Below, piece after piece: positions 1-14,830 of a DNA stretch of 14,868 nt. This DNA is from Candidatus Diapherotrites archaeon CG10_big_fil_rev_8_21_14_0_10_31_34 (GTDB taxonomy: Archaea; Iainarchaeota; Iainarchaeia; Iainarchaeales; 1-14-0-10-31-34). Under the pieces are notes generated by a model that worked only from the letters and a program-made list of their open reading frames with translations, ran no database searches and was not told the DNA's origin. Location: the NCBI GenBank assembly GCA_002763225.1, contig PFAI01000059.1:1-14868 (forward strand). Direction: 5' to 3'. A program made the position numbers and the translations under genes. The stretch's first letter is position 1. Every line of letters starts with the position of its first letter.

Positions 1-666
1 AAAAACTATTTTTTTGTGTCCGGCAGATTTTGCTGCAAGCAATGCGTGAGTTGAAATTCCTTGAGAAACCATGTTAAATACTCCAGCGCACAAGTCTTCT
101 TTTTTCCTGCTTTTTGTTTTTCCAAAATGGGCAACAGAAACATTTTTTTTAAGCAATCCTATTCCTTTTGGATAAACATCTTTTAGCATTAAATCCATTT
201 TTTTCAGGTTTCCTTTTTTTGCACAAGATTCTATTTCTTTAAAATCAGTTTTTTTTGTTAAAAAATAACTTAATCCTAGCAAAGTTCTTCCCCCTATTGC
301 TGTTCCTCCTATGTGTGCGTTTTTTTTTCTTTTAACTGAAACAAAACAGATTCCTGTTCCGGCTGAAGCAGCCAAAAACTCTTTTTGTTTTGATAAAAAT
401 GAAGCTCCTTTTGCTATTGCTTCAATTTCGTTTACCTTGATTATTTTTTTTCCTTGAATTTCTTTTATTTTTATTGAGTTTGCTCCGGTTAAAGCAATTG
501 TTTCTGCGTCAGAAAAAAATTTGTCTGAAAGAAATTCTTGTCTTTGCTTTGAAACACTTTTTTTTGGATTCAAAAAAACTCTTTTCTTTTTTTTGATTTC
601 TTTGTCTTCAATTAACACTGCGTTAAAAGAACTTAATCCTAGATCTGCTGAATACATAAACATCAT
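1..666 (-). CDS. Type II pantothenate kinase-like protein (Fumble/CoaW family, ASKHA fold), 3' end outside window
   Basis: Not in the ORF track; translated by hand from ATG 666 and open to position 1: MMFMYSADLGLSSFN...IALTGA...VNEIEAIAKGA...SAGTG...HIGGTAIGGRTLLGL...KGNLKKMDLMLKDVY...AHFGK...EDLCAGVFNMV. Motif order matches type II PanK. Confidence 0.8.
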   Translation of the reverse strand, partial: MMFMYSADLGLSSFNAVLIEDKEIKKKKRVFLNPKKSVSKQRQEFLSDKFFSDAETIALTGANSIKIKEIQGKKIIKVNEIEAIAKGASFLSKQKEFLAASAGTGICFVSVKRKKNAHIGGTAIGGRTLLGLSYFLTKKTDFKEIESCAKKGNLKKMDLMLKDVYPKGIGLLKKNVSVAHFGKTKSRKKEDLCAGVFNMVSQGISTHALLAAKSAGHKKIVF

Positions 667-699
667 TTTGCAGTATGGGCTTGTCCCGTACTTTTTGTT

Positions 700-719
700 A
701 AACCTTTTGTAAAAGGTTT
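700..719. repeat. Inverted repeat AAACCTTTT-GT-AAAAGGTTT in the tRNA 3' trailer
   Basis: Perfect 9-bp arms (700-708 and 711-719) directly after the tRNA discriminator base. Function unknown. Confidence 0.55.
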
Positions 720-837
720 TGCAGGCGGGAGGATTCGAACCTCCGAAGGCACTAAGCCACTAGGTGTTTTCGAATAAAAATCAAATAACTTATTATTCCC
801 CTAAACCTAGTCCATTTGACCGCTTTGGTACGCCTGC
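720..837 (-). tRNA. tRNA-Leu(TAG) with 34-nt intron at canonical position 37/38; CCA not encoded
   Basis: Acceptor stem GCAGGCG/CGCCTGC plus A73; D arm CCA..TGG; anticodon stem CTAGG/CCTAG with TAG at 803-801; long variable arm GGC-TTAGT-GCC; T arm GGAGG-TTCGAAT-CCTCC. Exons 837-800 and 765-720. Confidence 0.96.
766..799 (-). other. Archaeal tRNA intron with relaxed bulge-helix-bulge motif
   Basis: Intron G-GAATAA-TAAGTTATTTGATTT-TTATTC-GAAA-AC. Bulges are GGG and ACA; the central helix TTTA/GAAA has 3 pairs plus an A-G mismatch; outer stem GAATAA/TTATTC. Removing it restores a 7-nt anticodon loop. Confidence 0.9.
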
Positions 838-1833
838 AATAAGATTTATTGCTTTTATTCTGTCAGGATTTTTAGGTAAATAATTGTTGTCAAGAACGTA
901 TTTTAATCTTTTTATTTGATTTTTCTTTATTTTAAAATCAGTTTGAGGATATTTTTCTTTTATCAAGTATGTTCCGCTGTTTTTGGATTCAATATTTAGT
1001 TTTGCTAGCATTTCTACTAAGTCATTCACTAGCCTTTGACTTCGAAAGGTGCAACCAATTGAATTACCGTGTTTTCCTAGGTCACTGTCAATTAATCCTG
1101 CAAGAAAAGGCACTGCTTCATTTGGTTTAAGTTTTTTTATTGTTTCAGGAATGTGTGCTTTAATGCTTTTCTTTCCAGAAGGCAAACCCATAATTTGAGT
1201 AAAAAATCTGAATATTGCTTTATTTTTTATTGTCAATTCCCAAGCTTGATGCCTGAAACCGAATAAAATTTTTTCTATTTTAAACACTTTTTTCATTAAT
1301 GGAATTATTTTTTCAGTGACAAATATTTCTTTTCCACTGTAATAAATTACTTTATATTCAAAATTTTTTGTTCTCCTTTTTATTATTGGAAGACACCCGT
1401 CGCCCAATATTAATCCTGAGAGATATATAATATCTGGAGAAATTTTGTTTGGAATTTTTACTGTGCTTCCTGTTGTGCTTGAAACGTATTTCAAATTCTT
1501 TGCTATTTCTTTTGTTTCTTTTTCACATTCAAACTGGCGCAAAACAGAAATAGCAATAAGAGGAATTGACGCCCTTCCTAATATCCAATCATTGATAGTC
1601 TTTTTGGATACTTTATAAGGGATTATTTCTGCCCATTTTTCAGTCCAGTTTATTCCAATTTGTTTTTTGAGTTTTTTGTTTATTTGTCTCAATTCGATAT
1701 TTATTTTTAGTGCTTCAAAATTTTTTTTGGCCGGATTATTGCAATATTTGGGAATAATGTTGTATGCTCTTAAACAATGCCTCAATGTTGTGTCTTCTTC
1801 TGAATCATGCAAATCAAATAAATTGAATTCCAT
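793..1833 (-). CDS. Free-standing double-motif LAGLIDADG (DOD/intein-type) endonuclease-like protein with N-terminal HTH
   Basis: Motif 1 YLSGLILGDG, lysine block GLPSGKKS, motif 2 FLAGLIDSD, and XRE-like HTH VSKKTINDWILGRASIP. No intein splicing termini. The last 14 residues (AGVPKRSNGLGLGE) are read from the tRNA 5' exon and the start of the intron. Confidence 0.85.
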   Translation of the reverse strand: MEFNLFDLHDSEEDTTLRHCLRAYNIIPKYCNNPAKKNFEALKINIELRQINKKLKKQIGINWTEKWAEIIPYKVSKKTINDWILGRASIPLIAISVLRQFECEKETKEIAKNLKYVSSTTGSTVKIPNKISPDIIYLSGLILGDGCLPIIKRRTKNFEYKVIYYSGKEIFVTEKIIPLMKKVFKIEKILFGFRHQAWELTIKNKAIFRFFTQIMGLPSGKKSIKAHIPETIKKLKPNEAVPFLAGLIDSDLGKHGNSIGCTFRSQRLVNDLVEMLAKLNIESKNSGTYLIKEKYPQTDFKIKKNQIKRLKYVLDNNYLPKNPDRIKAINLIAGVPKRSNGLGLGE

Positions 1834-1854
1834 GATAAAATGAGTTTTTTCTTT

Positions 1855-1862
1855 TTTATAAA
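1855..1862 (-). promoter_or_regulatory. TATA box of LAGLIDADG gene (leaderless)
   Basis: TTTATAAA ending 21 nt before ATG 1833, similar to the spacing at other genes in this window. Confidence 0.55.
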
Positions 1863-1937
1863 CAATTTGAGGGCAGACTGCCGGTAAAGAGGATTCCCAA
1901 AAGTTTTTATTACAGAGTTTATTGTTTTATAGTTCTG

Positions 1938-1945
1938 TTTAAATA
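1938..1945 (+). promoter_or_regulatory. TATA box of DUF47-pit operon
   Basis: TTTAAATA ending 22 nt before ATG 1968. Confidence 0.6.
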
Positions 1946-1967
1946 TTTTTCTTGAAGCAATTCTTGA

Positions 1968-2608
1968 ATGAAAAGAGTAATTAATTTTTTTATGCCGAAA
2001 GAAGACATTTTTTTTGATTTATTGAAAAATCAGGCAAAAATTGTGTGTGAAACCAGCACTATTTTTGGAAGGTTTTTAAGGGATTTTGATGAGTTAAATG
2101 CAAAACAAAAAAAAAGAAAGTCAGTGAAATAAATGAAATGGAGCATAAAGCAGATGAATTGACTCATGAAATGGTTGCTTTATTGCATAAAAGTTTTATT
2201 ACTCCTATTGACAGGGAAGACATTCACCAGTTAACTGATTTGCTTGATGATTTGGTTGATGTAATTGATGATGTTTCAAATAAAATGATTCAGTATGAAT
2301 TAAAGGAAATTCCGGAAGACTTGTTTGATTTATCTGTTACTGGCTTGAAGTCTTTGAATGAAGTTTTTGAGGCTGTTTCCTGCCTGAAGAACCCTGTTTC
2401 AATTAATGTTCATTTAAGGAGAATCCATGATTTTGAGGATGAAGGAGACAGGATTTACAATAAGGCAATATCTGGTTTGTTTAAAAAAGAAAAAAACGCA
2501 ATTAAGCTGATTAAGTTAAGGGATATTTATGGGGAAATGGAAGACCTTTTGGATAAAAGCCAAAGGGTTGCTATTGTGATTGAAGGCATTGTGGTAAAGC
2601 ATGCTTGA
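1968..2608 (+). pseudogene. DUF47/PhoU-like phosphate transport regulator, split by a 1-nt frameshift at an A9 run (2107-2115)
   Basis: Upstream frame 1968-2132 reads MKRVINFFMPKEDIFFDLLKNQA..., a typical DUF47 N-terminus. Downstream frame reads ...EINEMEHKADEL...FITPIDREDI.... One extra A joins the two. Could be a sequencing error or a slippage site rather than a dead gene. Confidence 0.8.
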
Positions 2609-3608
2609 CCCTTTTATTTTGGTTGCAATAGGAATACTCACTGCCTTGATTTTTGATTTCGGCAACGGATTAAATGATGCTGCTAATGCGATTTCAACTG
2701 TTGTTGCTACACGGGTTTTGTCTTTGCGTTCTGCAGTACTGCTTTCTGCTTTCTTTAATTTTGTTGCTGCATTTGTTTTTTCTGTTGCTGTTGCCGCCAC
2801 AATAGGGAAAGGATTAATTGACTTTGAAGCCGTTACTACAACAATTGTTTTGTCCGGCTTGGTTGGCTCAATTGTTTGGGTTTATTTTTCTTCTTTTATT
2901 GGTTTGCCTGTGTCTGCTTCACATGCTTTAATCGGAGGCCTTGTTGGTTCTGCTTTGGTTGGCGCAGGATTTAATTCTTTGATTGTTTCTGGAATCTTGA
3001 TTGTTTTTGCTTTTATTTTTGTTGCTCCAATCATTGGAATGATTGGTTCTTTCCTGTTTTCTGCTCTGGTTTTAAGGCTTGTCAGGAACACTCCTCCAAG
3101 AAAAGTAAACAATTTGTTTAAAAGGCTTCAGTTGATTTCTGTTTCAGTTTATTCTTTAGGGCACGGAACAAATGACGCACAAAAAACAATGGGCATAATT
3201 TCTTTGATGCTTTTTTCCAGCGGATTTCTTGGAAACGAGTTTTTTGTTCCTTGGTGGGTTATAATTCTTTCTCATACTACTATTGCTTTGGGGACCATTG
3301 CAGGAGGCTGGAGAGTCATAAAAACAATGGGAACAAAAATAACCAAGTTAAGGCCGATTAACGGTTTTTGTGCTGAAACTTCTGGTGCAGGAGTAATAAT
3401 TGCAAGCACTGTTTTTGGAATTCCAGTCAGCACAACCCATGTTGTTTCAGGTGCAATTATGGGGGTTGGCTTAACTAAAAGAACTTCTGCTGTCCATTGG
3501 AGTGTAGCCAGAAACATTGTCTGGGCATGGGTTTTAACTATTCCTGTAACTGCTTTTGTCGGGGCAATAAGCTATTTAATTTTAAATCCAATAATTAATG
3601 CTCTTTAA
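2601..3608 (+). CDS. pit: Inorganic phosphate transporter, PiT/PHO4 family
   Basis: Signature motifs NGLNDAANAIST, PVSASHALIGG, HGTNDAQKTMG and PVSTTHV; hydrophobic; overlaps the DUF47 stop. Confidence 0.95.
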   Translation: MLDPFILVAIGILTALIFDFGNGLNDAANAISTVVATRVLSLRSAVLLSAFFNFVAAFVFSVAVAATIGKGLIDFEAVTTTIVLSGLVGSIVWVYFSSFIGLPVSASHALIGGLVGSALVGAGFNSLIVSGILIVFAFIFVAPIIGMIGSFLFSALVLRLVRNTPPRKVNNLFKRLQLISVSVYSLGHGTNDAQKTMGIISLMLFSSGFLGNEFFVPWWVIILSHTTIALGTIAGGWRVIKTMGTKITKLRPINGFCAETSGAGVIIASTVFGIPVSTTHVVSGAIMGVGLTKRTSAVHWSVARNIVWAWVLTIPVTAFVGAISYLILNPIINAL

Positions 3609-4156
3609 TTTTTTTCCAAAAACGTTTTCAATTTTTCTGCTGCTTTAGCCCTATGCGAAAACTTGTTTTTGCTTTTTCTTGAAAAAAATGCTAAAACTTT
3701 TTTCTTTCCTTTTGGAACAAAAATTTTTTCATAAGCCATTACTTTTTTGTTTTCCAGAAAAACCTTTTCAGTTATTTTTCCATAAAGTTTTCCTTCAAAA
3801 AATTTAGTTTTTTTGCCGTCAAAAAAACAGATTACTGTTTTATAAAAAGCATTTCTTTTTTTTCCTTCAAGTTTCTTTAACAGTCCAGCTAATCCTAATT
3901 TCAGATACTGCCTTTTTGGTTCTGTTCCAGGAAAATTCTTTAATGCAGTGAAATAAATTCCTGTGTCTTCTGCAATCAAAGGCTTTTTGATTTTCTTGAA
4001 TGCCTGTTTTGCTTTTGATTCAGCTATTTTTTCAACTGAATTGCTTTTTGGTTCATGCAGTTCAATGTTAATTTGTTTTAATCTGATTTTTTTTCCAAGC
4101 AGTTTTTTTATTTCCTGTACTTTATGCTTGTTGCCTGTTGCAATAATTAGTTGCAT
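3605..4156 (-). CDS. rdgB: Non-canonical purine NTP pyrophosphatase (RdgB/HAM1 family)
   Basis: ATGNKHK, AEDTG, FPG and SHRAKA motifs. True start taken as ATG 4156 (MQLIIATGN), because the longer track ORF overlaps the divergent gene. Confidence 0.92.
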   Translation of the reverse strand: MQLIIATGNKHKVQEIKKLLGKKIRLKQINIELHEPKSNSVEKIAESKAKQAFKKIKKPLIAEDTGIYFTALKNFPGTEPKRQYLKLGLAGLLKKLEGKKRNAFYKTVICFFDGKKTKFFEGKLYGKITEKVFLENKKVMAYEKIFVPKGKKKVLAFFSRKSKNKFSHRAKAAEKLKTFLEKN

Positions 4157-4176
4157 TAAAGTTTTGTTTTTGTAAA

Positions 4177-4186
4177 TGTTTAAATA
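4177..4186. promoter_or_regulatory. Overlapping bidirectional TATA boxes (rdgB and lipoprotein gene)
   Basis: TTTAAATA (+, 4179-4186) ends 22 nt before ATG 4209; TTTAAACA (-, 4184-4177) ends 20 nt before ATG 4156. Confidence 0.55.
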
Positions 4187-4208
4187 GTTGTTTATACTAT
4201 AATTTAGA

Positions 4209-5192
4209 ATGAATAAAACAGTTTTTGTTTCATTAATTTTTCTAATTATTTTTTCTGGTTGCTTATTACAACCCCAGATTACAATTAAGTCTGCTGTACT
4301 AAATGGAGACTTTATTAAAGTTAATTTGCATTCAAATAAACAAATTAATGCTGAAATACAATTATCTGATGAATCTGATTTAATTTTGTGTTCACAAAAC
4401 ACTGTTTTAAATTCTGGAAACAATGAGGTTCAATTAAAATGTTTTTCTTCTGATTCAAACATTAAAGTAACTGTTTTTGCTGATGGAACAGTTTTTTCCA
4501 ATGATTTGGAATTAGAGTTTGATGAAACTGATATTGAATCCAAAGTGATTTTTTTGGCTGAAACAAAGACTTTTGAAGGAGAAGCATTAAAGGTAATTGA
4601 AAACGGGACAGCAAAACAAAATCAATGCAATGCCCTGGATTATGTTGCCGGAATGAAAGCTTATTTCGGGTTTGCTTCAGTTTATTCTGATTCTTCTTCT
4701 CAGGATTTTATAAACACTCTTGATAATTTAACTTCAGAGCAACTGCAGTTATTGGATGAACAGCTAACTCAAACGAAAAACTGCAATATGTTTATTGAAA
4801 AAGAATTGACTGATTTTGGTGACGGAAAATACAGTGTTTCTTATTCTTGGGTTGGAAAAGGAGACTGTTTTTATGCTGGCCAGACAAGAAGATTTGAATA
4901 CCAGAAAAATGTTGTTGTAATTGAAGTGAATTTAAAGAATAATTCTGCTAAAACAACTTCTGGTGGAATTACTGATAGTTATACTGATGAAGAACAGGCA
5001 AGAAAAATGATTAAAGGATTTGAAGTTCTTGGAGGGTGCTTTAAGGCTTTAATTTTAGGAATCGACCCAATTTCAGGAATTATTTATGAAGAAATTGAAC
5101 CGTCAAAAGCATCTGAAGTTAAAGAAATTCAAATTAATTCAGAAGATTTAAATAAGTCATCCTGGGAAGACTTAAATGCAACAGTTTCTTAA
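4209..5192 (+). CDS. Hypothetical acidic secreted lipoprotein
   Basis: Signal peptide with lipobox-like IIFSG|C; acidic mature region with six further Cys; no family recognised. Confidence 0.75.
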   Translation: MNKTVFVSLIFLIIFSGCLLQPQITIKSAVLNGDFIKVNLHSNKQINAEIQLSDESDLILCSQNTVLNSGNNEVQLKCFSSDSNIKVTVFADGTVFSNDLELEFDETDIESKVIFLAETKTFEGEALKVIENGTAKQNQCNALDYVAGMKAYFGFASVYSDSSSQDFINTLDNLTSEQLQLLDEQLTQTKNCNMFIEKELTDFGDGKYSVSYSWVGKGDCFYAGQTRRFEYQKNVVVIEVNLKNNSAKTTSGGITDSYTDEEQARKMIKGFEVLGGCFKALILGIDPISGIIYEEIEPSKASEVKEIQINSEDLNKSSWEDLNATVS

Positions 5193-5197
5193 AAGTT

Positions 5198-6397
5198 TTA
5201 TTTGCTGTTTTTTTCAATGAATTCTTTTATTAGTTCAGTTCCTTTTTTGATGTTTTCATCTGATGTTGCAAAAGAAAATCTTAAGTGTTCGCCTTCTGAA
5301 AGAATTTTTTTTCCGAAATGAATGTCAGACAAAACCGCAACTTTTATTTCATCCAGTAATCTTAATCTTAATTCTTCTGCAGTTTTTATTCCAGTCATTT
5401 CACATGCTTTAGTTACATTAGGATAAACATAAAATGTTCCTTTTGGGCTTAAGCAACGAAATCCTGGAATTTCATTTAATAATTTGACTATTAAATCTCT
5501 TCTTCTGTGGAATGAATCAGTCATTTTTTTTGCGTCATTTCCTGCTTCATTTAATGCAGCTGCTGCGGCATACTGGTTTACATGCCCTGCACAGGCATTA
5601 GTGTTTATTACCCAAGTAGTAAAATCTTTTGCAAGTTTTTCGTTTATTATATACCCTATTCTCCATCCAGTCATAGCAAAAGTTTTACTTACTCCGGTTG
5701 AAATAATTGTTCTTTCCTGCATTCCTTCTAATGAAGCAATGCTTTCAAATTTTCCTTCAAATAAAATATGCTGGTAAATTTCATCTGAGTAAACCCATAA
5801 ATCGTTGTCTATTGCAATATCTGCAATTCCTTTTAATGATTCTTTAGTTAAAACTCCTCCTGTTGGGTTCTGAGGAGAATTAATTATAATTAATTTAGTT
5901 TTATCTGAAACTTTTTCTTTTAGTTCTTCTAAATCAAAGTTAAAGTTTTTTGATTCCAAAATATTGTATGGAACTGGTGTTGCTCCATGAACTATTGTTT
6001 GTGTGGAATAAATCGGGTAGCCTGGATTAGGGTACATTATTTCGTCTCCTTTACCATAATCAGTTGAAATCATAATTGAATGAGTGATAAAAGGTTTTGC
6101 TCCATTGTCCACTACAACTGAATCAGGGTCAATTTCTATTCCTCTTATTTTTCCTTCATATTCAGCTATTGCTTTTCTTAACTCTGGGATTCCGTTAGAA
6201 GAAGTATACCCTGATTTATTTGAGTCAATTGCTTTTTTTGCTGCGTCTCTAACCACTTTTGGTGCATCAAAATCCGGCTGACCAATACAAAAACTGATTA
6301 TATTCTGCCCTTTGGCAATTCTTTTATTGACTTCTCCTAAAACAACAAAAGCATTTTCTGTTCCAAGGTTTTTTGTTCTATTAGAAATTCCAGCCAT
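5198..6397 (-). CDS. PLP-dependent aminotransferase class I/II (aspartate aminotransferase-like)
   Basis: GQPDF, GYT, NSPQNPTGG, SDEIY and SKTFAMTGWRIGY motifs; SD-like GGATGTGA upstream. Confidence 0.95.
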   Translation of the reverse strand: MAGISNRTKNLGTENAFVVLGEVNKRIAKGQNIISFCIGQPDFDAPKVVRDAAKKAIDSNKSGYTSSNGIPELRKAIAEYEGKIRGIEIDPDSVVVDNGAKPFITHSIMISTDYGKGDEIMYPNPGYPIYSTQTIVHGATPVPYNILESKNFNFDLEELKEKVSDKTKLIIINSPQNPTGGVLTKESLKGIADIAIDNDLWVYSDEIYQHILFEGKFESIASLEGMQERTIISTGVSKTFAMTGWRIGYIINEKLAKDFTTWVINTNACAGHVNQYAAAAALNEAGNDAKKMTDSFHRRRDLIVKLLNEIPGFRCLSPKGTFYVYPNVTKACEMTGIKTAEELRLRLLDEIKVAVLSDIHFGKKILSEGEHLRFSFATSDENIKKGTELIKEFIEKNSK

Positions 6398-6469
6398 TTA
6401 ATCACATCCAAAAAAGTTCATAATTTTTCATAAAAAAGAAAGTGCAAAAGAATTTAAATGGTTTGTGGT

Positions 6470-8005
6470 TCATTTGTAAATCGATTCAACAATCTCCTTT
6501 TTTAATCCAGGGAATTGTGCTAACCATTGTTTTCTTTCTTCTAAAAGTTTATTGACTTTTTCTTCGAATTCTTCTTTTGAGTAATAGTTTGCAGGATCAA
6601 ATTCTGAGAAATCAATTCCTTCAATTCCTTTTGGCACTAAATAATTCCAGTTAGAATCTTTTTTCCATTCGATTTTTCCTTGTGCAATAAATTTCATTAT
6701 GTCAGTTGAAAGTTTAATGCTGATGTTTTTTCCTTTTTCAAATCCGGTTCTTCCGATTCCCCCGGTGTTCATTACAAAGCATTCAATGTCTTTATTGTTT
6801 TTGAGTATTTCATACAACCTGTTTCCTTCGTCTTCTTCTTTTCCTGTAATAAAAGGATTTGTTCCGACTTCTCTTTTTGACTGTCCTGCTTTTGTTGGGT
6901 CTCCTGCAGAAGTTTCAATGCTTTCTCCTAACATGAAATATGCTGCAGCCTGTTCTGGAGTTAGTTTTGCTATTACAGGAACAATGTCTTCTCTTCTTGT
7001 AATAAAAATTATTTTGTGTGCTTTTTCTAAGTCAATTTCTTTTTCTGCTCCTTCAACTGAATCTCTTGGCAAAACTCCTCTGCCGTTTGCTGTTAATTCT
7101 AAGTTTTTGAAATCAACTTTTCCGTTTTCACTTACTTTAACGTTTTCAAAAATAGCAGTTGGTTTTACTGATGCTTCATACAAAACTTTTTGGCTTTCAT
7201 CTAATCCTTCTGTTTTAATGAAAAAACCAAATTCTGTTCCTGCACAAAAACCTTTTTCATCCATAAAAACTACATCATCCTGTCTTATGCTGACCCCTTC
7301 TTCGCCAGTTAATTCATGATTATGAATTGTTAAAGTGGTTTTTCCTGTCCCACTTAATCCAAACATAATAAATCCAACTTCCTGTAATTCGTTGTTTTTG
7401 TTTTTGACTTTCAATAGTTTGCTTCCTGCATGTAATCCTAATCCTTTTGTTTTTTCTTTATGAAATAACATTCCCATTCTCAGAAAAGATTTTTTTACTT
7501 CTCCAAAGTAATCTGAACCCAGACAAAAAGTGATTTTTTGTTTTGGATAACAAAAGATTTTTGTTTCAGGCCATTCAGGGACATGGATTGAAATCATTTC
7601 AGGTTCTTTTTCTTTTGAAGGATAAAGCATGTAATTCCACATAAAAGCCAGTTTTGCCTGTTCTTTTGAAACATAAAGCCTGCACTCAATTTCATTTTTT
7701 GGGTTAAGACACATTGTTTTATTTATTTGAATTAATTCTTTGTCGTTTAAGTATTCAAAAACTTTTTCTGCTAATTCTTCTGCTTCTTTTTCTTTTATCG
7801 GCGTTTGTTTTATTCCTAATTTTATTTCAGGTACAATAAAAGTTTTTTTTGCGCTCCTGTTCCTGATTTTTGTTACATAAGAAGCAGAGCCAAATTCTGT
7901 TGTTGTTTCCATTGGCTTGGCTATTTCCCTTAATTCTTCCGGTGAAATGTTTTTGATTATTTTGCAGTTTTCTTCAAGTTTTTTTATTACAGTTTTTTTA
8001 TCCAT
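6470..8005 (-). CDS. pckA: Phosphoenolpyruvate carboxykinase (ATP)
   Basis: YFGEVKK, LHAG, P-loop FGLSGTGKTTL, QDD, FENV, NGR and NPF motifs; SD GGAGG upstream. Confidence 0.92.
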   Translation of the reverse strand: MDKKTVIKKLEENCKIIKNISPEELREIAKPMETTTEFGSASYVTKIRNRSAKKTFIVPEIKLGIKQTPIKEKEAEELAEKVFEYLNDKELIQINKTMCLNPKNEIECRLYVSKEQAKLAFMWNYMLYPSKEKEPEMISIHVPEWPETKIFCYPKQKITFCLGSDYFGEVKKSFLRMGMLFHKEKTKGLGLHAGSKLLKVKNKNNELQEVGFIMFGLSGTGKTTLTIHNHELTGEEGVSIRQDDVVFMDEKGFCAGTEFGFFIKTEGLDESQKVLYEASVKPTAIFENVKVSENGKVDFKNLELTANGRGVLPRDSVEGAEKEIDLEKAHKIIFITRREDIVPVIAKLTPEQAAAYFMLGESIETSAGDPTKAGQSKREVGTNPFITGKEEDEGNRLYEILKNNKDIECFVMNTGGIGRTGFEKGKNISIKLSTDIMKFIAQGKIEWKKDSNWNYLVPKGIEGIDFSEFDPANYYSKEEFEEKVNKLLEERKQWLAQFPGLKKEIVESIYK

Positions 8006-8141
8006 TTTCTTCCTCCAAAAAAAATCTAATTTAATGCCGGCAAAAAATTAGTTTATTTTTCGCTTTTTCTTTCACAAGAAAAAAATTAGCCTTCAAAAAT
8101 TATTTAAATAAACCGTTTGGATAACTTCTGGTTTTATTCTT

Positions 8142-8585
8142 TTAGGTTTTCTTGTTTTTGTTTATTCCGGCTGAAAATGATTCAATTTCTTCAAAGAGTT
8201 TTTCTGCGTCTTTTATTGCTTCCAATGAATCTTCTTTTGTACAGCCTGCCCCAATGTATTGTATTGCGTGCCTTGTAATCCTGTATGAATCCATTGTTTG
8301 CAGCAATTCTTTTAGCTTAACTTTTTCTTTATAGATTTCTTTTACTGCTGAAATCATTGCTGAATGGCTTCTTTCTTTTAAATTGTTTTTGAATAACAAT
8401 GTTCTGGCTGAATGAAACATTGACTGATAGGCAAGGCTGAAAGCAACATCAAAGAATTCTATTTTCTGGTTTCCTTTTGCTTTTTCAATGAATTTTTCTG
8501 CAATTGCCAGTGAACCAGAAACTTCTTGTTCGCTTGATTTGCTTTTAATCAGTAATCCTTTTTCAATCAATGAACTTATTTTCAT
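8142..8585 (-). CDS. HEPN domain protein (COG1895/UPF0332-like)
   Basis: AYQSMFHSARTLL...RSH...RHAIQY pattern. Start taken as ATG 8585, which forms an ATGA overlap with the MNT stop. Confidence 0.85.
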   Translation of the reverse strand: MKISSLIEKGLLIKSKSSEQEVSGSLAIAEKFIEKAKGNQKIEFFDVAFSLAYQSMFHSARTLLFKNNLKERSHSAMISAVKEIYKEKVKLKELLQTMDSYRITRHAIQYIGAGCTKEDSLEAIKDAEKLFEEIESFSAGINKNKKT

Positions 8586-9121
8586 ATTAATTCCCCTATC
8601 AGAAAAACATTGTTTTTTGATACAGCCAAACCAAAATCTTCTTTTGACTGCTTTCTCCATTCAGCTAAAGTAAAAACCTGGATTCTGGCTTCTTTTGAAG
8701 TTTTTTCTTCTATTTTTTTTATTGAGTTCAGCTTAATTTTTTTGGTTTGGCTTATTGCAATCAAATCAATATCGCTTTTTTTGTCAAAAGTTCCTTTTGC
8801 ATGGCTTCCATACAAAACCAAAGAACTTGCAAAAGGATTTTCTTTCCGGAATTCTTCAATAAAAGGCATTATTATTGAAAGAAAAAAAGTTTTTTTTAAT
8901 TCAAGAGTTAAAGGGGTTTCTTTCAGCGAATAACTTAACACATTAGCAGTTTTTTCTTTTTCTAAAACTCCTTGTTTTTCGTATTCCAAAAGGTATTTTT
9001 GGGCTGTACCAGAACTCACTTGCAGTTTTTTTGCAAGCCCTTTTACATGTATTTTCTGGTTATACTCCAAAAAAAACTCTAATATTTTCCATCCCCTGAA
9101 CTTACTCCAGTTAAATAACAT
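8582..9121 (-). CDS. HTH plus minimal nucleotidyltransferase (MntA-like antitoxin)
   Basis: N-terminal winged HTH (HVKGLAKKLQVSSGTAQKYL); catalytic motif LYGSHAKG-x5-SDIDL. Confidence 0.9.
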   Translation of the reverse strand: MLFNWSKFRGWKILEFFLEYNQKIHVKGLAKKLQVSSGTAQKYLLEYEKQGVLEKEKTANVLSYSLKETPLTLELKKTFFLSIIMPFIEEFRKENPFASSLVLYGSHAKGTFDKKSDIDLIAISQTKKIKLNSIKKIEEKTSKEARIQVFTLAEWRKQSKEDFGLAVSKNNVFLIGELI

Positions 9122-9136
9122 AATAAAATAAACTAT

Positions 9137-9164
9137 CGTTCAATATATAAAACGAACGTTTTAT
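9137..9164 (-). promoter_or_regulatory. TATA box and overlapping palindromic operator candidate of MNT-HEPN operon
   Basis: TTTATATA (9151-9144) ends 22 nt before ATG 9121; perfect inverted repeat ATAAAACG-AA-CGTTTTAT at 9147-9164. Confidence 0.6.
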
Positions 9165-9285
9165 GGGCTTTTTGCAGAAAGGTGTTTTGATGATAAAAAA
9201 TCAGGTAATAATCATCTATTGCTTTTCTTTCCTGTGCTTTTTTTTTCTGCAAAACTTTTTTTAATTGATGTGCCTTTTTATAATT

Positions 9286-9987
9286 ATGGCTGAAGCAGTT
9301 ATCAAGGCAGTTAATGTAGTTAAAACTTATAATATGGGTTTAGTGCAGGTTCATGCATTAAGCGGAGTCAGCTTTGATTTATTGAAAGGCGAGTTTGTTT
9401 CTATTATGGGGCCTTCTGGAAGCGGAAAAACAACTTTATTGGATGTGTTAAGTGTTTTGTCAAGGCCTACTTCAGGAGAAGTTTTTATTAATAAAAAACC
9501 GATTTCTAAAATGGATGATAATGAGTTAGCTAAAATTCGAGGACAGACAATTGGTTTTGTTTTTCAGACATTTAATTTAATTAACAGATTAAGTGCAAAA
9601 GAAAATGTTATGATGCCTTTATGGTTTCAGGGAGTGCCGAAAGGAGAAAGAGAAAAAATTGCTGAAAAAATTCTGAAAGATGTTGGTTTAGGTGACAGAA
9701 TTAATCACAAGCCAAGCGAGCTTTCCGGAGGGCAAAGACAGAGAGTTGCAATTGCAAGAGCTTTAGCTGTTAATCCTGATATTATTGTTGCTGATGAGCC
9801 AACAGGAAACCTTGATTCTGTTTCAGGAGACCAGATAATGGATTTGATTGTTGATTTGAATAAAAAGCACGGAAAAACTATTTTGATGGTTACTCATGAA
9901 GAAGATATTGCTGCTAATGCAGAAAGAATTGTCAGGTTAAAAGACGGAAAAATAATTGCTGATGAAAAAGTAAAAAAGAAAAAGTAA
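9286..9987 (+). CDS. ABC transporter ATP-binding protein (LolD/MacB/SalX family)
   Basis: Walker A GPSGSGKTT, GFVFQ, LSGGQRQRVAIARAL, ADEPTGNLD and VTHE. ATG 9286 preferred over TTG 9265. Confidence 0.96.
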   Translation: MAEAVIKAVNVVKTYNMGLVQVHALSGVSFDLLKGEFVSIMGPSGSGKTTLLDVLSVLSRPTSGEVFINKKPISKMDDNELAKIRGQTIGFVFQTFNLINRLSAKENVMMPLWFQGVPKGEREKIAEKILKDVGLGDRINHKPSELSGGQRQRVAIARALAVNPDIIVADEPTGNLDSVSGDQIMDLIVDLNKKHGKTILMVTHEEDIAANAERIVRLKDGKIIADEKVKKKK

Positions 9988-10228
9988 AAAAAACAAGGAA
10001 AAAAACAAGGAAAAAAAATAACTAATAAAATAATTAATAAACTAATTAAAAAAACAAATAAAAAACAAATGAGGTGTAAATGAAAAAATAAAAAAGAAAA
10101 ATCAAGGAATAGCTTAAAAATAATTAAAAAAAAGAAAACTAAATGGAGTAAAAATAAAAAGTAATTAATGAAATAAAATTAAGGAGTATTTATTAAATCT
10201 TTTGAGTTTAATTTAATGGGGTGTTTTA
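9988..10228 (+). repeat. A-rich low-complexity intergenic spacer with short degenerate repeats
   Basis: About 240 nt dominated by A runs; AAAAAAACAAGG twice and several AACTAAT/AATTAA variants. Confidence 0.7.
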
Positions 10229-11434
10229 ATGAAAAAGTTCGTATTTTTTTTGGCGGTTTTATTGTTTGCTGCAACGGTTAATGCAGTTAATCTGGATATT
10301 AATTCTGTTACTTATTCACCTTCCCCTGGCGTGCCCGGACAGTATGTTGATTTATGGGTTGTAGTAAAAAACACCAGTGGAGCAGAATCAGGCAATGTTG
10401 ATTTTATTCTGGATTTAGATTATCCTTTTTCTTTGGATCCCGGAATTTTGGCTGAAAAAAACCTTGGAAAAATCAGGGGGAATGACAGCATTTTAGTTAA
10501 ATTAAAAGTCAGAATTGATTCAGAGGCATTAAATGGAACTTATACTGTCAGAATGAGAACAGTTGAAGAAGGAACTTCAAGCAAAAGCACTCCATATAAT
10601 ATTGATGTTAAAAGAATTTCTCCTCAGATTGAAATTATTTCAGCTGAACCGGTTGAGATTGCTTCGGGGCAGGTAACAGGAATTAATTTAAACCTGAAAA
10701 ACATTGGTTCAGGAAAAGCATTAGATGTTTTGGTTGGAAGCATTGAAGACAGAACTGTTACTTCAACCGGAGTAGTGGTTGAAAGAGAAATAAAACAATT
10801 AGGAAGCAGTTTTGTTTATTTAAATGAATTAACCCAAGGACAGGAAGAAACTGTTGTAATTATTTTAGGGGTTAATCCTGAAGCAGACCAGCAAACTTAT
10901 ATGATGCCGATTACAATCAAATTCAAGGACGAAGAATTAACTGAATATTCTTCAACAAAATACATTGGAATCAAAGTAACCCAGAACGCTGAAATGGATT
11001 CAGTTATAAGCGGTTATTCAGTAAAACCTTTTTCCGGCGGAACAACTGAAATAACTTTTGATTTGTTTAATGTTGGGGCAGGAGACGCAAAATCTCTTGT
11101 AGTAGAGCTTTCAACTGAAGCAGGGGTTTTTGATAACACAAAACAGTTCATTGGAACAATGAGTGCAGATGACTTTGATTCATTTAAAGCAGAAATAAAA
11201 TTAAATAATGATTTACAAAAAGGAGAATACCCGGTTACAGTTGCAATGAAATACAAAGACCAGTATGGTGCAGAAGAAATTGCCGTAAAAACTTTAATGC
11301 TGAAAGTTTATGACATTACTGAAATTTCAACTGAAGAATTCAATATCTGGTTTTACATTGTAGTTTTAATAGTATTATTCTTTGTTGGAAGGTTTTTGTA
11401 CAAAAAATTTATCAAAAAGAATAATATGAAGTGA
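10229..11434 (+). CDS. COG1361-type S-layer-domain protein (Ig-like repeats, signal peptide, C-terminal membrane anchor)
   Basis: Signal peptide; repeated beta-sandwich motifs (VVKNTS, LKNIGSGKA, LFNVGAGDA, GEYPV..KYKD); C-terminal TM helix with basic tail; SD GGGGTG; typical partner of archaeal MacB-type ABC systems. Confidence 0.8.
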   Translation: MKKFVFFLAVLLFAATVNAVNLDINSVTYSPSPGVPGQYVDLWVVVKNTSGAESGNVDFILDLDYPFSLDPGILAEKNLGKIRGNDSILVKLKVRIDSEALNGTYTVRMRTVEEGTSSKSTPYNIDVKRISPQIEIISAEPVEIASGQVTGINLNLKNIGSGKALDVLVGSIEDRTVTSTGVVVEREIKQLGSSFVYLNELTQGQEETVVIILGVNPEADQQTYMMPITIKFKDEELTEYSSTKYIGIKVTQNAEMDSVISGYSVKPFSGGTTEITFDLFNVGAGDAKSLVVELSTEAGVFDNTKQFIGTMSADDFDSFKAEIKLNNDLQKGEYPVTVAMKYKDQYGAEEIAVKTLMLKVYDITEISTEEFNIWFYIVVLIVLFFVGRFLYKKFIKKNNMK

Positions 11435-11446
11435 GGAAAGGTTTAG

Positions 11447-12640
11447 ATGGTTCTAGAAACCTTTTCTGTTGCTTTCAATAACATCAGAAACCAAAAGCTC
11501 AGAAGCTATTTAACTTTGCTTGGGATAGTAATTGGGATTGCTGCAATTGTTTCTTTAATTGGAATAGTTCAGGGTTTACAAAATTTTATTGGATCTGAAT
11601 TACAGTCTTTGGGAATGAATTCTATTTTTGTTGAGCCTGGTTCAGAGATGGGAATGACTACTGCTGTTTCTAGAAGCCTTAAAGCAGATGATTTGGATGT
11701 AATCAGAGGAGTTCCCGGAGTAAAAGATGCAACTGGTTTTTGGGAAACTTCTGCTACAATGAAATTCAAGGATCAGGAAGCAGAAGTTTTATTGGTTGGG
11801 ATGGAACCAGATAAAATGTTTATGTTAGAAGACATGGGGTATGTAGAGATTACTGAAGGAAGGGAATTCACTAATACTGATATGTTTTCTGTCGGGCTTT
11901 ACTCTGATTTTGCTGAAGAAACTTTTGATGACCCGATTCAGTTAAGGCAGACAGTTGAACTTAATGGCAAAAAATTTCGGGTTATTGCGATAAGCAAACC
12001 AAATACTTTTGCATCGTCTTTTGGTGCTTCAAACATGGTTTTAGTTACAAAAGATGTAGTACAAAAAAATTTTGATGAAGAAGACCCTGTAGAACTAATT
12101 GTTACTGTAAACAATACATCTGAAATAACTGATGTTCAGGAAGAAATTGAAAAAAGATTAGAGAAAAAGCATGGTTCAAAAGACTTTTATACAATGACTT
12201 CAGAGAATTTGCTTTCCGGAGCAGATGCAATTTTAGGTCTTGTGGGTTTGGTTGTTTTTGTTATTGCAGGAATTTCTCTTTTAGTTGGAGGAATCGGAAT
12301 AATGAATACAATGCTGATGACTGTAATGGAGAGAACAAGAGAAATTGGAATAATGAAAGCAATTGGTGCAAGCAGTAATCTTGTTTTGTCATTGTTTTTG
12401 TTTGAAGCAGGATTAATTGGATTGATTGGAGGAATTCTTGGAGTTGTAATTGGTGCTTTGATTGGATTGCTTGCTTCGGTTGCAGCATCTTATGAGGGTT
12501 TTCCGTTTTCAGCTTTGCCTTCAATGGAATTGATTGGAGGCGCATTAATTTTTTCTTTGGTTGTTGGAATGATTTCCGGCTGGATTCCTGCAAACAGAGC
12601 AGCAAAAATGGATCCAGTGGAGGCATTGAGATTCGAGTAG
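11447..12640 (+). CDS. ABC transporter permease (MacB/FtsX family), paralog 1
   Basis: KLRSYLTLLGIVIGIAA, GGIGIMNTMLMTVMERTREIGIMKAIGA and PANRAAKMDPVEALR motifs. Confidence 0.95.
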   Translation: MVLETFSVAFNNIRNQKLRSYLTLLGIVIGIAAIVSLIGIVQGLQNFIGSELQSLGMNSIFVEPGSEMGMTTAVSRSLKADDLDVIRGVPGVKDATGFWETSATMKFKDQEAEVLLVGMEPDKMFMLEDMGYVEITEGREFTNTDMFSVGLYSDFAEETFDDPIQLRQTVELNGKKFRVIAISKPNTFASSFGASNMVLVTKDVVQKNFDEEDPVELIVTVNNTSEITDVQEEIEKRLEKKHGSKDFYTMTSENLLSGADAILGLVGLVVFVIAGISLLVGGIGIMNTMLMTVMERTREIGIMKAIGASSNLVLSLFLFEAGLIGLIGGILGVVIGALIGLLASVAASYEGFPFSALPSMELIGGALIFSLVVGMISGWIPANRAAKMDPVEALRFE

Positions 12641-12643
12641 CCC

Positions 12644-12711
12644 TGCTCTTTTTCTCTTTTCCGAAAGAGAAAAAGTGCAAGTTGCAATTTAATTCCAAAG
12701 GAATTAAATGC
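12644..12711 (+). other. Two tandem stem-loops after permease 1
   Basis: CTTTTTCTCTTT-TCCG-AAAGAGAAAAAG (12648-12675, 12 bp perfect) and ATTTAATTCC-AAA-GGAATTAAAT (12687-12709, 10 bp perfect). Confidence 0.7.
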
Positions 12712-12743
12712 ACATTAAAATCAAAAAGATTTTAATAGTGCCC

Positions 12744-12987
12744 AAAAAGAGAAAAGGAACTAGAAAAAGAAAAAAAAAGCAAAAAAATTAAAAAAATTAA
12801 AAAACGGAAAAAAGAAAAGAAAGAAACTGGAAAAAAATGGTTTTGGAATAAAAAATTTTTTGGAGAAAAAAAATAAAAGAAAAAGCAAAAAAAGAAAAGA
12901 AAAAAATGGGAAAGAAAAAATAAATGAAAAAACAAAATAAAAGAAAAAATTAAAAAAAAGTTTGGAAGAAAAAAACAAAAAAACAAA
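12744..12987 (+). repeat. Extremely A/purine-rich low-complexity spacer
   Basis: About 245 nt of A runs separated by short G, T or C patches; AAAAAAATT tandem repeat and TTTGGA three times. Confidence 0.75.
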
Positions 12988-13001
12988 TTTGGTTGAATAA
13001 A

Positions 13002-14195
13002 ATGGATTTAGAATTGTTTTCAAGGGCAGTGGAAAACCTGAAAAGGCAAAAGCTCAGAAGCGTATTGACTTTGTTAGGAATAATTATTGGGATTGGTTCT
13101 GTTGTTGCATTGATTTCAATTGGAGATGGTTTTAATAAATCAGTTGAAAAAGAATTTGAAAAACTTGGTTCAAATACTTTAATTATTCTGCCTGGCTCGT
13201 CTTTGGTGGGTTCAGCTTTTGCTAAACTGGATGAAAAAGATGTTGATATAATTGAATCAGTCAGAGGAGTTGAATCTGCTACTCCGATTTATTTGTCTTC
13301 TGGCACAGTGAAATTTAAAGAAGAAGAAAAAACTGTATTGCTTTTAGGAATTGATACAAAAAAACAAGATTTATTAAAGAGTTTAGGGATTTTAGAAGTT
13401 GGAGAAGGAAGACTTTTAACTCAATCAGATAATTTAGCTGTTTTAGTTGGTTCAAGGTTTTCAGAAAACACTTTTGAATCAGAATTAAAACTAAAACAAA
13501 ATCTTTTGCTTGGAACTGACTCGCTTAAAATTGTCGGCATAACCAAGCCGGCAGGCCAGTCTTTTGGAGCAATGTTTGACGGGGCAATAGTAATGAATTA
13601 CAGGGCATTAGAAGATTCAACTGGACAAAAATTAACTCCTTTCAGAATTTTTGCTAAAGCAGTAAACAAAGACGAAGTATTAGAAGTAAAACAAAGAATT
13701 AAAGACAGGTTAAAACGAGCTCACGGAAAAGAAGATGTTCAGGTTATGACTGCATCCCAGATACAGGAAACAGCTTTAAGTGTTTTAGGCTTGATTCAGT
13801 TAGTATTAGTTTTTATTGCAGCAATTTCTCTTGTAGTCGGAGGCATTGGAATAATGAATACAATGCTGATGGCAGTATTAGAAAGAACAAAAGAAATTGG
13901 AATAATGAAAGCAATTGGTGCAACAAATACTACTGTATTATCGCTTTTTTTGTCTGAAGCAGGAATAATTGGATTGATTGGAGGAATAATAGGTTATCTT
14001 TTAGGTTTGACTATTGCTTTAATCGGAGGAATTGCAGCAAGTTCTTCCGGAATAGATTTGATAATTGAATTTGACCCAATGCTTTTGTTCGGTTCCCTTG
14101 CATTTGCTTTTGGAGTAGGAGTAATTTCAGGTTATATTCCTGCCCAGAGGGCAGCAAACATGGAGCCGGTTGAAGCTCTAAGGGATAAAGAGTGA
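13002..14195 (+). CDS. ABC transporter permease (MacB/FtsX family), paralog 2
   Basis: KLRSVLTLLGIIIGIGS, GGIGIMNTMLMAVLERTKEIGIMKAIGA and PAQRAANMEPVEALR motifs. ATG 13002 preferred over TTG 12993. Confidence 0.95.
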   Translation: MDLELFSRAVENLKRQKLRSVLTLLGIIIGIGSVVALISIGDGFNKSVEKEFEKLGSNTLIILPGSSLVGSAFAKLDEKDVDIIESVRGVESATPIYLSSGTVKFKEEEKTVLLLGIDTKKQDLLKSLGILEVGEGRLLTQSDNLAVLVGSRFSENTFESELKLKQNLLLGTDSLKIVGITKPAGQSFGAMFDGAIVMNYRALEDSTGQKLTPFRIFAKAVNKDEVLEVKQRIKDRLKRAHGKEDVQVMTASQIQETALSVLGLIQLVLVFIAAISLVVGGIGIMNTMLMAVLERTKEIGIMKAIGATNTTVLSLFLSEAGIIGLIGGIIGYLLGLTIALIGGIAASSSGIDLIIEFDPMLLFGSLAFAFGVGVISGYIPAQRAANMEPVEALRDKE

Positions 14196-14235
14196 CATAT
14201 TCCGTTTTAAATATTTTTTTATTATAATAATAACC

Positions 14236-14538
14236 ATGCTCAACAAGGTTCTGGAAACTGAAACTTTTTCTCATTTATTTAATACTCTTGAAAGAGAAGA
14301 AAAGGAATGGATTAAAAAAATAATCGGGCAGTTGCAAGAGGATTCTAATGTTGGAAAGCCATTGCGTTTTAAGTGGTTTAGAGAAAAAAAGTTTGGTGGG
14401 AAACGACTATACTATTTGATTTATGAAAAATCAGGCACAGTTCTTTTAGTCGCTTTTGGAGCAAAAAAAGAACAGCAAAAAATAATCAGCCATATTCTGC
14501 AAAATAAGGAAAGATACAAGAAAATTGTTGAAAATTAA
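14236..14538 (+). CDS. RelE/ParE-superfamily toxin-like protein
   Basis: 100 aa, basic, with RelE-like layout: N-terminal strand and helices, GKPL, REKK, RLYYLI, VLLVAFG. Own TATA TTTAAATA at 14206-14213. Confidence 0.65.
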   Translation: MLNKVLETETFSHLFNTLEREEKEWIKKIIGQLQEDSNVGKPLRFKWFREKKFGGKRLYYLIYEKSGTVLLVAFGAKKEQQKIISHILQNKERYKKIVEN

Positions 14539-14675: not shown

Positions 14676-14830
14676 AACAAAATAGTATTTGTTATATTAT
14701 TTAAAACAACTGGTCGGGGTTTAGTTATTATTAAATTTATAAATTATTTCAAGGGGGCTACATTAACTACTCATTTTTGGGTACCTTAACATTTTTAAGT
14801 AGAATTTTATTTGATTCTTATTGTGAGTAA

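Follow-up and report, generated by a model that had tools for sequence, protein, structure and literature searches.

Background

Cellular homing endonucleases are thought to survive inside self-splicing introns or inteins, and free-standing ones are known mainly from phage. Here we describe an open reading frame (ORF) for a LAGLIDADG endonuclease that lies in neither setting. It is located in a 14,868-nucleotide (nt) stretch of DNA from a groundwater organism, Candidatus Diapherotrites archaeon CG10_big_fil_rev_8_21_14_0_10_31_34 (contig PFAI01000059.1, positions 1 to 14,868; hereafter the window), and it runs without a gap into a tRNA-Leu(UAG) gene. Like I-DmoI, I-Tsp061I, and the endonuclease domains of PI-PfuI and TliVMA, its product has two LAGLIDADG motifs in one chain with both acidic residues. 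However, those enzymes reside in spliced rRNA introns or inteins, whereas this ORF is free-standing, encodes an additional N-terminal domain of about 128 amino acids (aa), probably of the helix-turn-helix (HTH) type, and abuts a tRNA; its identity to the I-DmoI group is just 18-23%. We consider it probable that the ORF belongs to a mobile, free-standing homing endonuclease cassette that targets tRNA-Leu genes and sits flush on the 5' end of tRNA-Leu(UAG).

Free-standing endonucleases of the T-even phage spread by a process in which the enzyme cuts a nearby conserved gene in genomes that lack the cassette, with co-conversion of flanking markers. These enzymes are of the GIY-YIG or HNH type, and their genes lie in viral genomes with normal intergenic spacing. 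Examples of this 'intronless homing' are SegB, which is located in the T4 tRNA gene cluster (PMC2790892, PMC13096335), SegF/SegG, and MobE. The phage genes resemble the present one in lying outside any intron or intein, and SegB is likewise tied to tRNA genes. In contrast, the genes described here are of the LAGLIDADG type, are found in the chromosomes of cellular archaea, where they leave no space to the tRNA and read into it, and form subfamilies that are faithful to one tRNA.

In fungal mitochondria, mobile endonuclease ORFs bring with them a substitute gene end, which generates hybrid genes; there the targets are protein-coding genes of organelles, and the enzymes are mostly GIY-YIG. The likeness to our locus is that a free-standing endonuclease appears to travel with a replacement piece of the gene that it invades. 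For archaea, Sugahara et al. 2012 set out a mobile-element model of tRNA gene disruption at the tRNA-Thr(GGU) of Caldiarchaeum subterraneum (PMC3293823). The Caldiarchaeum locus is similar to ours in its population and lineage differences at one tRNA, its upstream 5' fragment, and its element-linked intron gain, and the element itself is 1.8 kb long, with a predicted DNA recombinase and a plasmid-like composition (PMC3293823). Unlike that element, the agent at our locus is a putative homing endonuclease, and the tRNA is intact and adjacent. A full-text literature search, taken at the level of abstracts, returned no description of archaeal LAGLIDADG genes docked on tRNA genes.

An endonuclease ORF that ends inside a tRNA-Leu gene

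According to the initial annotation, the ORF and the tRNA lie on one strand, the tRNA 5' exon is read in frame, and the TAA stop (795-793) falls within a 34-nt intron. The ORF list together with ARAGORN run with introns bears this out. The features concerned are:

793..1833, minus strand: free-standing endonuclease ORF, 346 aa (ORF list, Pfam, and structure prediction)
1450..1833, minus strand: N-terminal helical domain, about 128 aa, probably a lambda-cI/XRE-type HTH; predicted local distance difference test (pLDDT) 88 in a model of this domain alone
1396..1422, minus strand: first LAGLIDADG motif, LSGLILGDG, with D145 at 1401-1399
1075..1104, minus strand: second LAGLIDADG motif, LAGLIDSDLG, with D251 at 1083-1081
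720..837, minus strand: tRNA-Leu(UAG) gene (ARAGORN with introns, c[719,838], ends trimmed by eye)
837-800, minus strand: tRNA 5' exon
803-801, minus strand: anticodon TAG
799-766, minus strand: tRNA intron, 34 nt, at the canonical anticodon-loop site
793..795, minus strand: TAA stop of the endonuclease ORF, intron bases 5-7
765-720, minus strand: tRNA 3' exon

The last 13 codons of the ORF (AGVPKRSNGLGLG E*) are tRNA positions 1-38 plus intron bases 1-7, and the ORF end reads GCA GGC GTA CCA AAG CGG TCA AAT GGA CTA GGT TTA GGG GAA TAA; only its last 7 nt, 4 coding bases and the TAA stop, lie in the intron. The tRNA has the features of class II, namely a long variable arm, a UAG anticodon, and a paired 7-bp acceptor stem. 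CCA is not encoded, and the gene is the sole tRNA-Leu(UAG) call in its genome. Neither default ARAGORN nor Rfam at gathering score reports a tRNA in the window; below gathering score, Rfam gives a tRNA-clan match that is weak because of the intron. The minimum free energy (MFE) fold of tRNA plus intron is a cloverleaf with an intron hairpin (-42.1 kcal/mol, z = -4.4). At the exon-intron borders this fold has an extended anticodon stem, two 6-nt internal loops, and the intron hairpin, and a strict 3-4-3 bulge-helix-bulge (BHB) is not seen in it. Relaxed splice motifs are known for EndA of broad specificity.

As a control, all 40 ARAGORN tRNA calls in the 1.04-Mb genome of the window were considered. 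An open frame of at least 100 aa enters the tRNA start at three of them, all three being LAGLIDADG genes; at the remaining 37 the frame is 66 aa or shorter. The overlap in the window is not a product of chance.

The predicted protein

The match of the ORF protein to Pfam LAGLIDADG_3 is weak (25 bits; cut-off 22.5 bits). A search of a large protein collection yielded 38 relatives with 40-69% identity, and those few that bear names are from Micrarchaeota or Diapherotrites bins. Residues D145 and D251 are invariant across 35 aligned homologs, in agreement with the earlier statement that both acidic residues are kept, as are G146 and G253. An AlphaFold2 (AF2) model made with this 35-sequence alignment has a pLDDT of 92 and a predicted template modeling score (pTM) of 0.90. 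When the model is submitted to Foldseek, 74 chains of the Protein Data Bank (PDB) are matched at E<=1e-3, with the TliVMA intein endonuclease, I-DmoI, and PI-PfuI at the top. Residues ~130-333 of the predicted structure superpose on I-DmoI with a target-normalized TM-score (TMt) of 0.80 and a root mean square deviation of 2.7 A over ~200 residues. The protein as modeled has the pseudo-dimeric alpha-beta-beta-alpha-beta-beta-alpha LAGLIDADG fold.

The N-terminal domain taken alone has no Foldseek match at E<=1e-3. Its similarity to lambda cI is weak (VIA Z 5.5), and most of the top 50 rows in this comparison with known structures are HTH domains of the XRE/cI type. The N-terminal ~128 aa are probably a DNA-binding domain of the lambda-cI/XRE type. 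We infer that the product, an HTH domain joined to a single-chain I-DmoI-like double-LAGLIDADG core, cleaves DNA. The ratio of nonsynonymous to synonymous substitution (dN/dS) is 0.12-0.22 in four pairs of intact copies, with dS near saturation, and the intact copies are under purifying selection.

Within the AF2 model, the folded part comprises residues 1-333, of which 323-333 form the last helix. Beyond it, the tRNA 5' exon and the first 4 bases of the intron supply the codons for residues 334-346; this tRNA-encoded tail is predicted to be disordered, with a pLDDT below 50 for residues 339-346. Pfam detects no intein/Hint domain in the ORF protein, and a host extein is also absent. The ORF begins at its own ATG behind a TATA-like box, it is positioned between a divergent DUF47 gene and the tRNA, and its body is upstream of tRNA +1. 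As had been claimed, the gene sits in neither an intein nor an intron, a BHB-bounded one included.

Recurrence of the overlap in the Leu-docked family

When 215 genomes of the phylum were searched with a profile, 30 of them gave complete or partial copies (E<=2e-50). (In what follows, G- and L-numbers are codes for genomes and loci; G000 is the genome of the window and g1 its genus.) Named genome records that hold this Leu-docked family are Candidatus Iainarchaeum or Diapherotrites. The 30 loci were oriented and run through ARAGORN with introns; L015 and L023 are cut by contig ends, which leaves 28 evaluable loci. The tRNA calls needed manual correction: five ARAGORN 'Phe' or 'Pro' calls are tRNA-Leu with a misplaced intron, and the tRNAs of L007 and L021 were read by eye because their introns are long.

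Inspection of homolog 3' ends, which the initial annotation had proposed, gave a uniform result. A complete tRNA-Leu starts at the ORF 3' end in 28/28 loci, so that every evaluable homolog is tRNA-linked; 17 of these tRNAs are UAG and 11 are CAG, 19 with an intron and 9 without. A complete stop before tRNA +1 is found in 0/28 loci; in L016, tRNA base 1 provides the G of a TAG stop. Both results speak against a recent stop loss in genes without a link to tRNA, which the initial annotation had set as refuting its proposal. The frame is not fixed: tRNA base 1 falls at codon position 1, 2, or 3 in 15, 5, and 8 loci, respectively, and even the closest relative, in G012 (69% identity), differs in frame from the window. 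The stop starts at -2 (one locus), +8 (four), +10 (one), +13 (eight), +20 (one), +35 (two), +42 to +51 (eight), and +64, +88, and +97 (one each). It lies inside the intron in 10/28 loci, and in two the tRNA's own TAG anticodon is the ORF stop. An apparent ORF through the entire tRNA of L011 (stop +291) was rejected as an artefact of extending a BLAST hit across a stop; the actual stop is at +10. Public gene calls (P0003, P0006, P0008, P0010, P0020, P0021, and others) carry artefactual C-terminal tails translated from the tRNA, and also artefactual N-terminal extensions (MNPPAL.., ..SGNPLSQ..) translated from the conserved upstream motif described below.

One further family member, L082, contains stops; the title of its contig names a bin of Candidatus Falkowbacteria (CPR bacterium), which reflects either misbinning or cross-domain carriage.

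Paralogs docked on other tRNA genes

Looser paralogs comprised 20 second-tier matches in other genomes (24-33% identity) and the tRNA-Phe copy of the window's own genome, L002; one was without a match, and 20 were evaluated. Sixteen of the 20 end at a same-strand tRNA, mostly tRNA-Gln(CUG) and in two cases tRNA-Phe(GAA), and several of the docked tRNA-Gln(CUG) have a D-loop intron missed by ARAGORN. Of these 16 paralogs, ten extend into the tRNA and the other six end 5-47 nt short of it. Three of the 20 overlap the 3' end of a convergent tRNA-Met, and one is without a tRNA. The window's genome has four docked genes, at tRNA-Leu(UAG), Leu(GAG), Ile(GAU), and Phe(GAA). The latter three are:

G000:C47:17393-18143, minus strand: gene at tRNA-Leu(GAG), 249 aa, no HTH domain, ends AGVP*
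G000:C13:9962-11008, minus strand: gene at tRNA-Ile(GAU), 348 aa
G000:C9:20213-21199, minus strand: gene at tRNA-Phe(GAA), stops 8 nt before the tRNA, whose D-loop intron is missed by ARAGORN

The docked genes apparently constitute a large, undescribed group, each member of which sits on one particular tRNA gene.

Origin of the overlap

The initial annotation had suggested that one transcript could serve as both mRNA and pre-tRNA, such that tRNA maturation would remove the stop and limit nuclease output. Spelled out, a cut by RNase P at tRNA +1 or by EndA at the intron would turn processed transcripts into non-stop mRNAs. Because no stop precedes the tRNA in any of the 28 Leu-family loci, an RNase P cut of any co-transcript would indeed leave a non-stop mRNA. 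RNase P RNA is present in the genome (96.6 bits; cut-off 84 bits), and read-through transcription is plausible, since the native TATA-like box of the locus is now upstream of the cassette in occupied alleles. However, a selected device of this kind is at odds with the use of all three frames (15/5/8), with stops that range from -2 to +97 and fall in the intron in only 10/28 loci, and with the sister subfamilies just described, in which 6/16 ORFs stop 5-47 nt early and three face a convergent tRNA. In addition, C-terminal stubs that persist beside the tRNA (see below) fit a promoter or leader role of the ORF 3' end at least equally well. We consider such a device improbable; severing of the stop by RNase P is possible, but it is not needed and does not hold for the sister subfamilies.

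The variable frame, the intron stops, the disordered tail, and the earlier stops of sister subfamilies also count against the overlap as a conserved coding or regulatory design. The best reading of these sequences is that it is a by-product of zero spacing. The ORF enters the tRNA because its last structured helix ends at base -1, with no spacer, and translation would then continue until the tRNA or the intron supplies a stop, at U8-A9-G10, at N13-A14-R15, at the UAG anticodon, or in the AT-rich intron.

In clade A of the tree presented below, an NYLPK motif lies 48-50 nt from tRNA +1. The idea that it is conserved as DNA, as a TATA box for the tRNA, was rejected: its codons vary at synonymous sites, which places the selection at the protein level. 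A promoter may still lie within the 3' part of the ORF.

Empty sites and chimeric tRNA alleles

Positions 1-4500 of the window were compared with five other genomes of the genus. The gene order pantothenate kinase (PanK), tRNA-Leu(UAG), DUF47, PHO4 is common to all six. The syntenic site is occupied in G000, G012, and G014 and empty in G011, G013, and G015, so that the empty site sought by the initial annotation at the PanK-tRNA-DUF47 locus of relatives is found in 3/6 genomes. Along with the overlap in all 28 loci, these empty sites uphold its proposal of a tRNA-coupled selfish element. At the empty sites, an intron-less tRNA-Leu(UAG) lies 14-55 nt from the end of the DUF47-side homology (window 1893-1933), with a TATA-like box at about -38..-26 before the tRNA. 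The occupied alleles retain this native box upstream of the insert; in the window, a TATA-like GTAATAAAAAC at 1913-1903 matches it and is now 1 kb from the tRNA. The insert extends from ~1892 to 838, or ~1.06 kb.

The tRNA alleles themselves differ with occupancy. The variable arm is TGGCTTAGTGCC in the three occupied alleles versus TCCCTTAGTGGG or TCTCTTAGTGAG in the three empty ones, and the empty alleles are nearly alike in the D-arm, anticodon stem, and variable arm, where the occupied alleles differ. The T-arm and 3' acceptor strand of G012 and G014, on the other hand, are identical to those of the empty G015 allele. This pattern fits that expected from gene conversion ending inside the tRNA. 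In the chimeric tRNA-Leu of G014 (L017), there is a T6:T67 acceptor mismatch (5' GCAGGTG versus 3' CTCCTGC), as would be expected if the 5' strand is foreign and the 3' strand native.

Introns are also involved. The introns at position 37/38 in the window, G014, G168, G161, G151, and G074, which represent five host families, have 73% mean column identity with compensating stem changes. The intron is absent in the cassette-free alleles of the genus; it is absent in occupied G012 as well. Possible leftovers of a tRNA-Leu 5' part are seen upstream of the cassette in two loci: 21 nt (16 identical) at L003 201-224, behind a TATA-like box, and 26 nt at L010 1-26, at a contig end.

These features raise the question of where the element inserts. 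The same selfish element might insert inside the tRNA, after the D-arm or further 3', bringing a replacement 5' part while the old front is usually lost. Such a route is in line with the foreign 5' two-thirds and native T-arm of the G012 and G014 alleles, with related introns that travel with the gene in five host families, and with leftover fragments ending at tRNA position 21 (L003) and 26 (L010). Yet these leftovers, read by eye on short sequence, are found in 2/28 loci only, one being a 16-nt exact match plus 5 diverged bases and the other lying at the contig end, and ordinary co-conversion from a cut near tRNA +1 yields the same chimeric alleles. We keep insertion inside the tRNA as a tentative alternative, and favor a cassette that sits flush on the tRNA 5' end.

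In four DNA runs against window 1-3200, no contig bridging an empty site was found, and short, fragmentary contigs alone matched. Two contig 'joints' at 759/812-813 are other intron-less tRNA-Leu genes. Among RNA runs, none was listed as matching window 600-2100.

Phylogeny, transfer, and decay

A tree was built from 24 copies (22 intact ones plus the partly broken L012 and L016; the broken L013, L014, L030, and L031 were left out). It contains two deep clades, each with 100% support in the Shimodaira-Hasegawa-like approximate likelihood ratio test (SH-aLRT). Clade A consists of a UAG group, which includes G000 and G012, together with a monophyletic CAG group of 8 copies; clade B, which includes G014, is UAG throughout. 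Thus a single site in one genus holds both clades: the copies of G000 and G012 have 69% aa identity, and that of G014 has 39% identity to them. The G014 copy is, however, 69% identical to the copy of G168, a member of another family, which equals the value for G000 and G012. By comparison, identity within the genus is 75-77% for a housekeeping aminotransferase and 78% for phosphoenolpyruvate carboxykinase (PEPCK); for the aminotransferase it drops to 58% when the genus is compared with G168. This discrepancy between the G014/G168 identity and the housekeeping gene points to horizontal transfer. A mosaic G014 gene, with a native N-terminal third and the rest foreign, was considered and rejected, as it is nearer to G168 than to G000 throughout; the N-terminal domain is simply more conserved in this comparison. 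The anticodon type changes once on the tree, which indicates that lineages are faithful to their tRNA.

The family is also seen in decay. Stops or deletions are present in 6/28 copies, and in five further genomes nothing but the last 45-95 codons is left, again directly against tRNA-Leu. The stub of L068 is 135 nt long and takes up the interval from tRNA-Arg(GCG) to tRNA-Leu(CAG).

The initial annotation had also offered a domesticated DNA-binding regulator, which in its fullest form would be a protein that is inherited vertically, regulates or maintains the tRNA-Leu locus, and has undergone repeated loss. Purifying selection (dN/dS 0.12-0.22), the HTH domain, the fidelity of clades to one isoacceptor (one anticodon change) with partial clustering by host family, and an upstream motif held in common with the herA promoter region are all compatible with this idea. 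It is disfavored by the patchy occurrence of the gene, in ~30/215 genomes of the phylum and 3/6 of the genus, by the six broken copies and five stubs, and by the presence of two deep clades (39% identity) at the same site in one genus. Furthermore, both catalytic aspartates are invariant, and the tRNAs in occupied alleles are chimeric. We regard domestication as very improbable.

Proposed mechanism

Taken together, these comparisons argue for a mobile cassette that homes into tRNA-Leu genes. The HTH domain and I-DmoI-like core would bind and cut cassette-free tRNA-Leu alleles, with the cut placed in the interval from the promoter-proximal region to the variable arm. An allele with the cassette would then serve as the repair template, and the cassette would be copied along with the neighboring tRNA 5' part, sometimes with the intron. 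The chimeric alleles, the variable arm common to occupied alleles, and the intron common to five host families all fit such co-conversion. Because the tRNA stays whole, insertion would cost the host little; and because it is the sole tRNA-Leu(UAG) call in the genome, the tRNA must still be expressed. Transcription from the native and cassette promoters might read through into the tRNA, with RNase P cutting the product, or a promoter might lie within the last codons of the ORF, a role that the persisting stubs would fit.

Several points weigh against this model. Homing alone does not explain why members of the Leu family always lack a spacer and a stop ahead of tRNA +1. The argument for transfer uses one housekeeping marker between families together with coded family labels, and the host-family label changes 14 times on the tree versus a minimum of 10, so that vertical descent with loss could explain much of the pattern. 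The chimeric-tRNA signature consists of six short alleles read by eye. Near-identical flanks with and without the cassette, a sign of recent movement, were not found in the four DNA runs against window 1-3200. Finally, all of the genomes are metagenome bins, in which misassembly or misbinning is possible.

Cassette anatomy and neighboring genes

The cassette boundaries and the surrounding features of the window are:

1854..1862, minus strand: TATA-like box TTTATAAAA, presumed cassette promoter, ~20 nt before the ATG
1879..1886, minus strand: conserved upstream motif yACCGGmA, here TACCGGCA, ~27 nt before the TATA box at a fixed distance
1893..1913, minus strand: left edge of the insert; the G015 empty site is homologous up to 1893
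700..719, minus strand: hairpin AACCTTTT-ac-AAAAGGTT directly 3' of the tRNA, a terminator or a member of a genome hairpin-repeat family
1..666, minus strand: PanK, Fumble family, downstream of the tRNA
1992..2608, plus strand: DUF47/PhoU_div, divergent, frameshifted in an A-run of the present assembly
2601-3608: PHO4 phosphate transporter, after DUF47

The 5' part of the insert common to occupied alleles consists of TTTACCGGCA, a spacer of ~25 nt, TTTATAAAA, and ~20 nt leading to the ATG. A TATA-like box is found at the matching place in nearly all homolog and paralog loci, and yACCGGmA lies ~27 nt before it in nearly all docked genes of the family and paralogs. The motif belongs to the insert and is absent from empty sites. 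Its origin as a tRNA-Arg or tRNA-Leu remnant was rejected, since L016 and L018 have a complete tRNA-Arg that ends ~10 nt before the motif, and its presence before paralogs and herA also contradicts such an origin. A conserved hairpin was likewise considered for the motif; inverted repeats occur at some loci and none at others. The motif (CACCGGCA, ~20 nt, then TTTAAA) also precedes herA and the next gene (G000:C24:1714 and 4656, L063). This herA encodes 851 aa and bears an intein with LAGLIDADG motifs, and the next gene encodes 490 aa without a Pfam match. The motif may be a shared regulatory site that ties the nucleases to DNA-repair genes.

At several loci (L003 380-520; L005, L010, L024, L049, and L057), the upstream motif is immediately preceded by the end of a small conserved ORF of ~45-60 aa (..EEI..A....NPEDLDD.ELW.L.E..). 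L005 and L049 have near-identical copies of it upstream of two different endonuclease genes on one contig, and at other loci a small hydrophobic ORF takes its place. The conserved small ORF may be a piece of a larger cassette. A tRNA-Arg(GCG) lies upstream of the endonuclease gene in L007, L014, L015, L016, L018, and L031, as well as at the stub locus L068, with a gap of ~70 nt to the ATG (read in L016 and L018). In L007, an identical 24 nt (600-623 and 2541-2564) is present in the introns of the tRNA-Arg(GCG) and the tRNA-Leu(CAG) that flank the endonuclease gene.

The hairpin directly 3' of the tRNA is also found at the empty site of G015; after the same tRNA-Leu, G011-G014 carry a different one, TCGCGA..TCGCGA. 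In G000, many tRNA genes have short hairpin repeats (AACCTTTT..AAAAGGTT and relatives) directly at their 5' or 3' end. No tRNA promoter consensus could be derived from the other tRNA genes of G000, most of which are preceded by hairpin repeats and not by a fixed TATA box. DUF47 seems to start at the ATG at 1992 but meets a stop after 46 codons, and the rest lies in another frame that begins at 2138; one extra A behind 2106 is present in the contigs of two other runs, which indicates a 1-nt frameshift in the present assembly or strain.

Implications

For annotation, these loci mean that such tRNAs escape default ARAGORN and Rfam, and that gene callers add tRNA-encoded tails to proteins.

A far-reaching extension, which we consider unlikely as it stands, is that docked cassettes are a main engine of archaeal tRNA disruption, with subfamily-specific cuts, replacement 5' parts, and introns that break the target and so immunize it. 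If this were true, the introns that ride along would be those at 37/38 in tRNA-Leu and in the D-loop of docked tRNA-Gln and tRNA-Phe, and many tRNA introns and tRNA fragments of DPANN and other archaea would owe their spread and maintenance to homing endonucleases. RNase P 5' processing of the pre-tRNA would then be the counterpart of splicing for endonucleases borne by introns and inteins.

Regardless of this, a radiation of free-standing LAGLIDADG genes persists in very small archaeal genomes, docked on essential single-copy tRNA genes. If the enzymes cut tRNA genes, they would be natural long-target nucleases with an added HTH reading head, and they would provide a testable route to chimeric tRNAs, to leftover tRNA pieces, and to the spread of small tRNA introns in archaea. 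Docking on a tRNA gene would, in that case, represent a third 'safe harbour' strategy for selfish nucleases.

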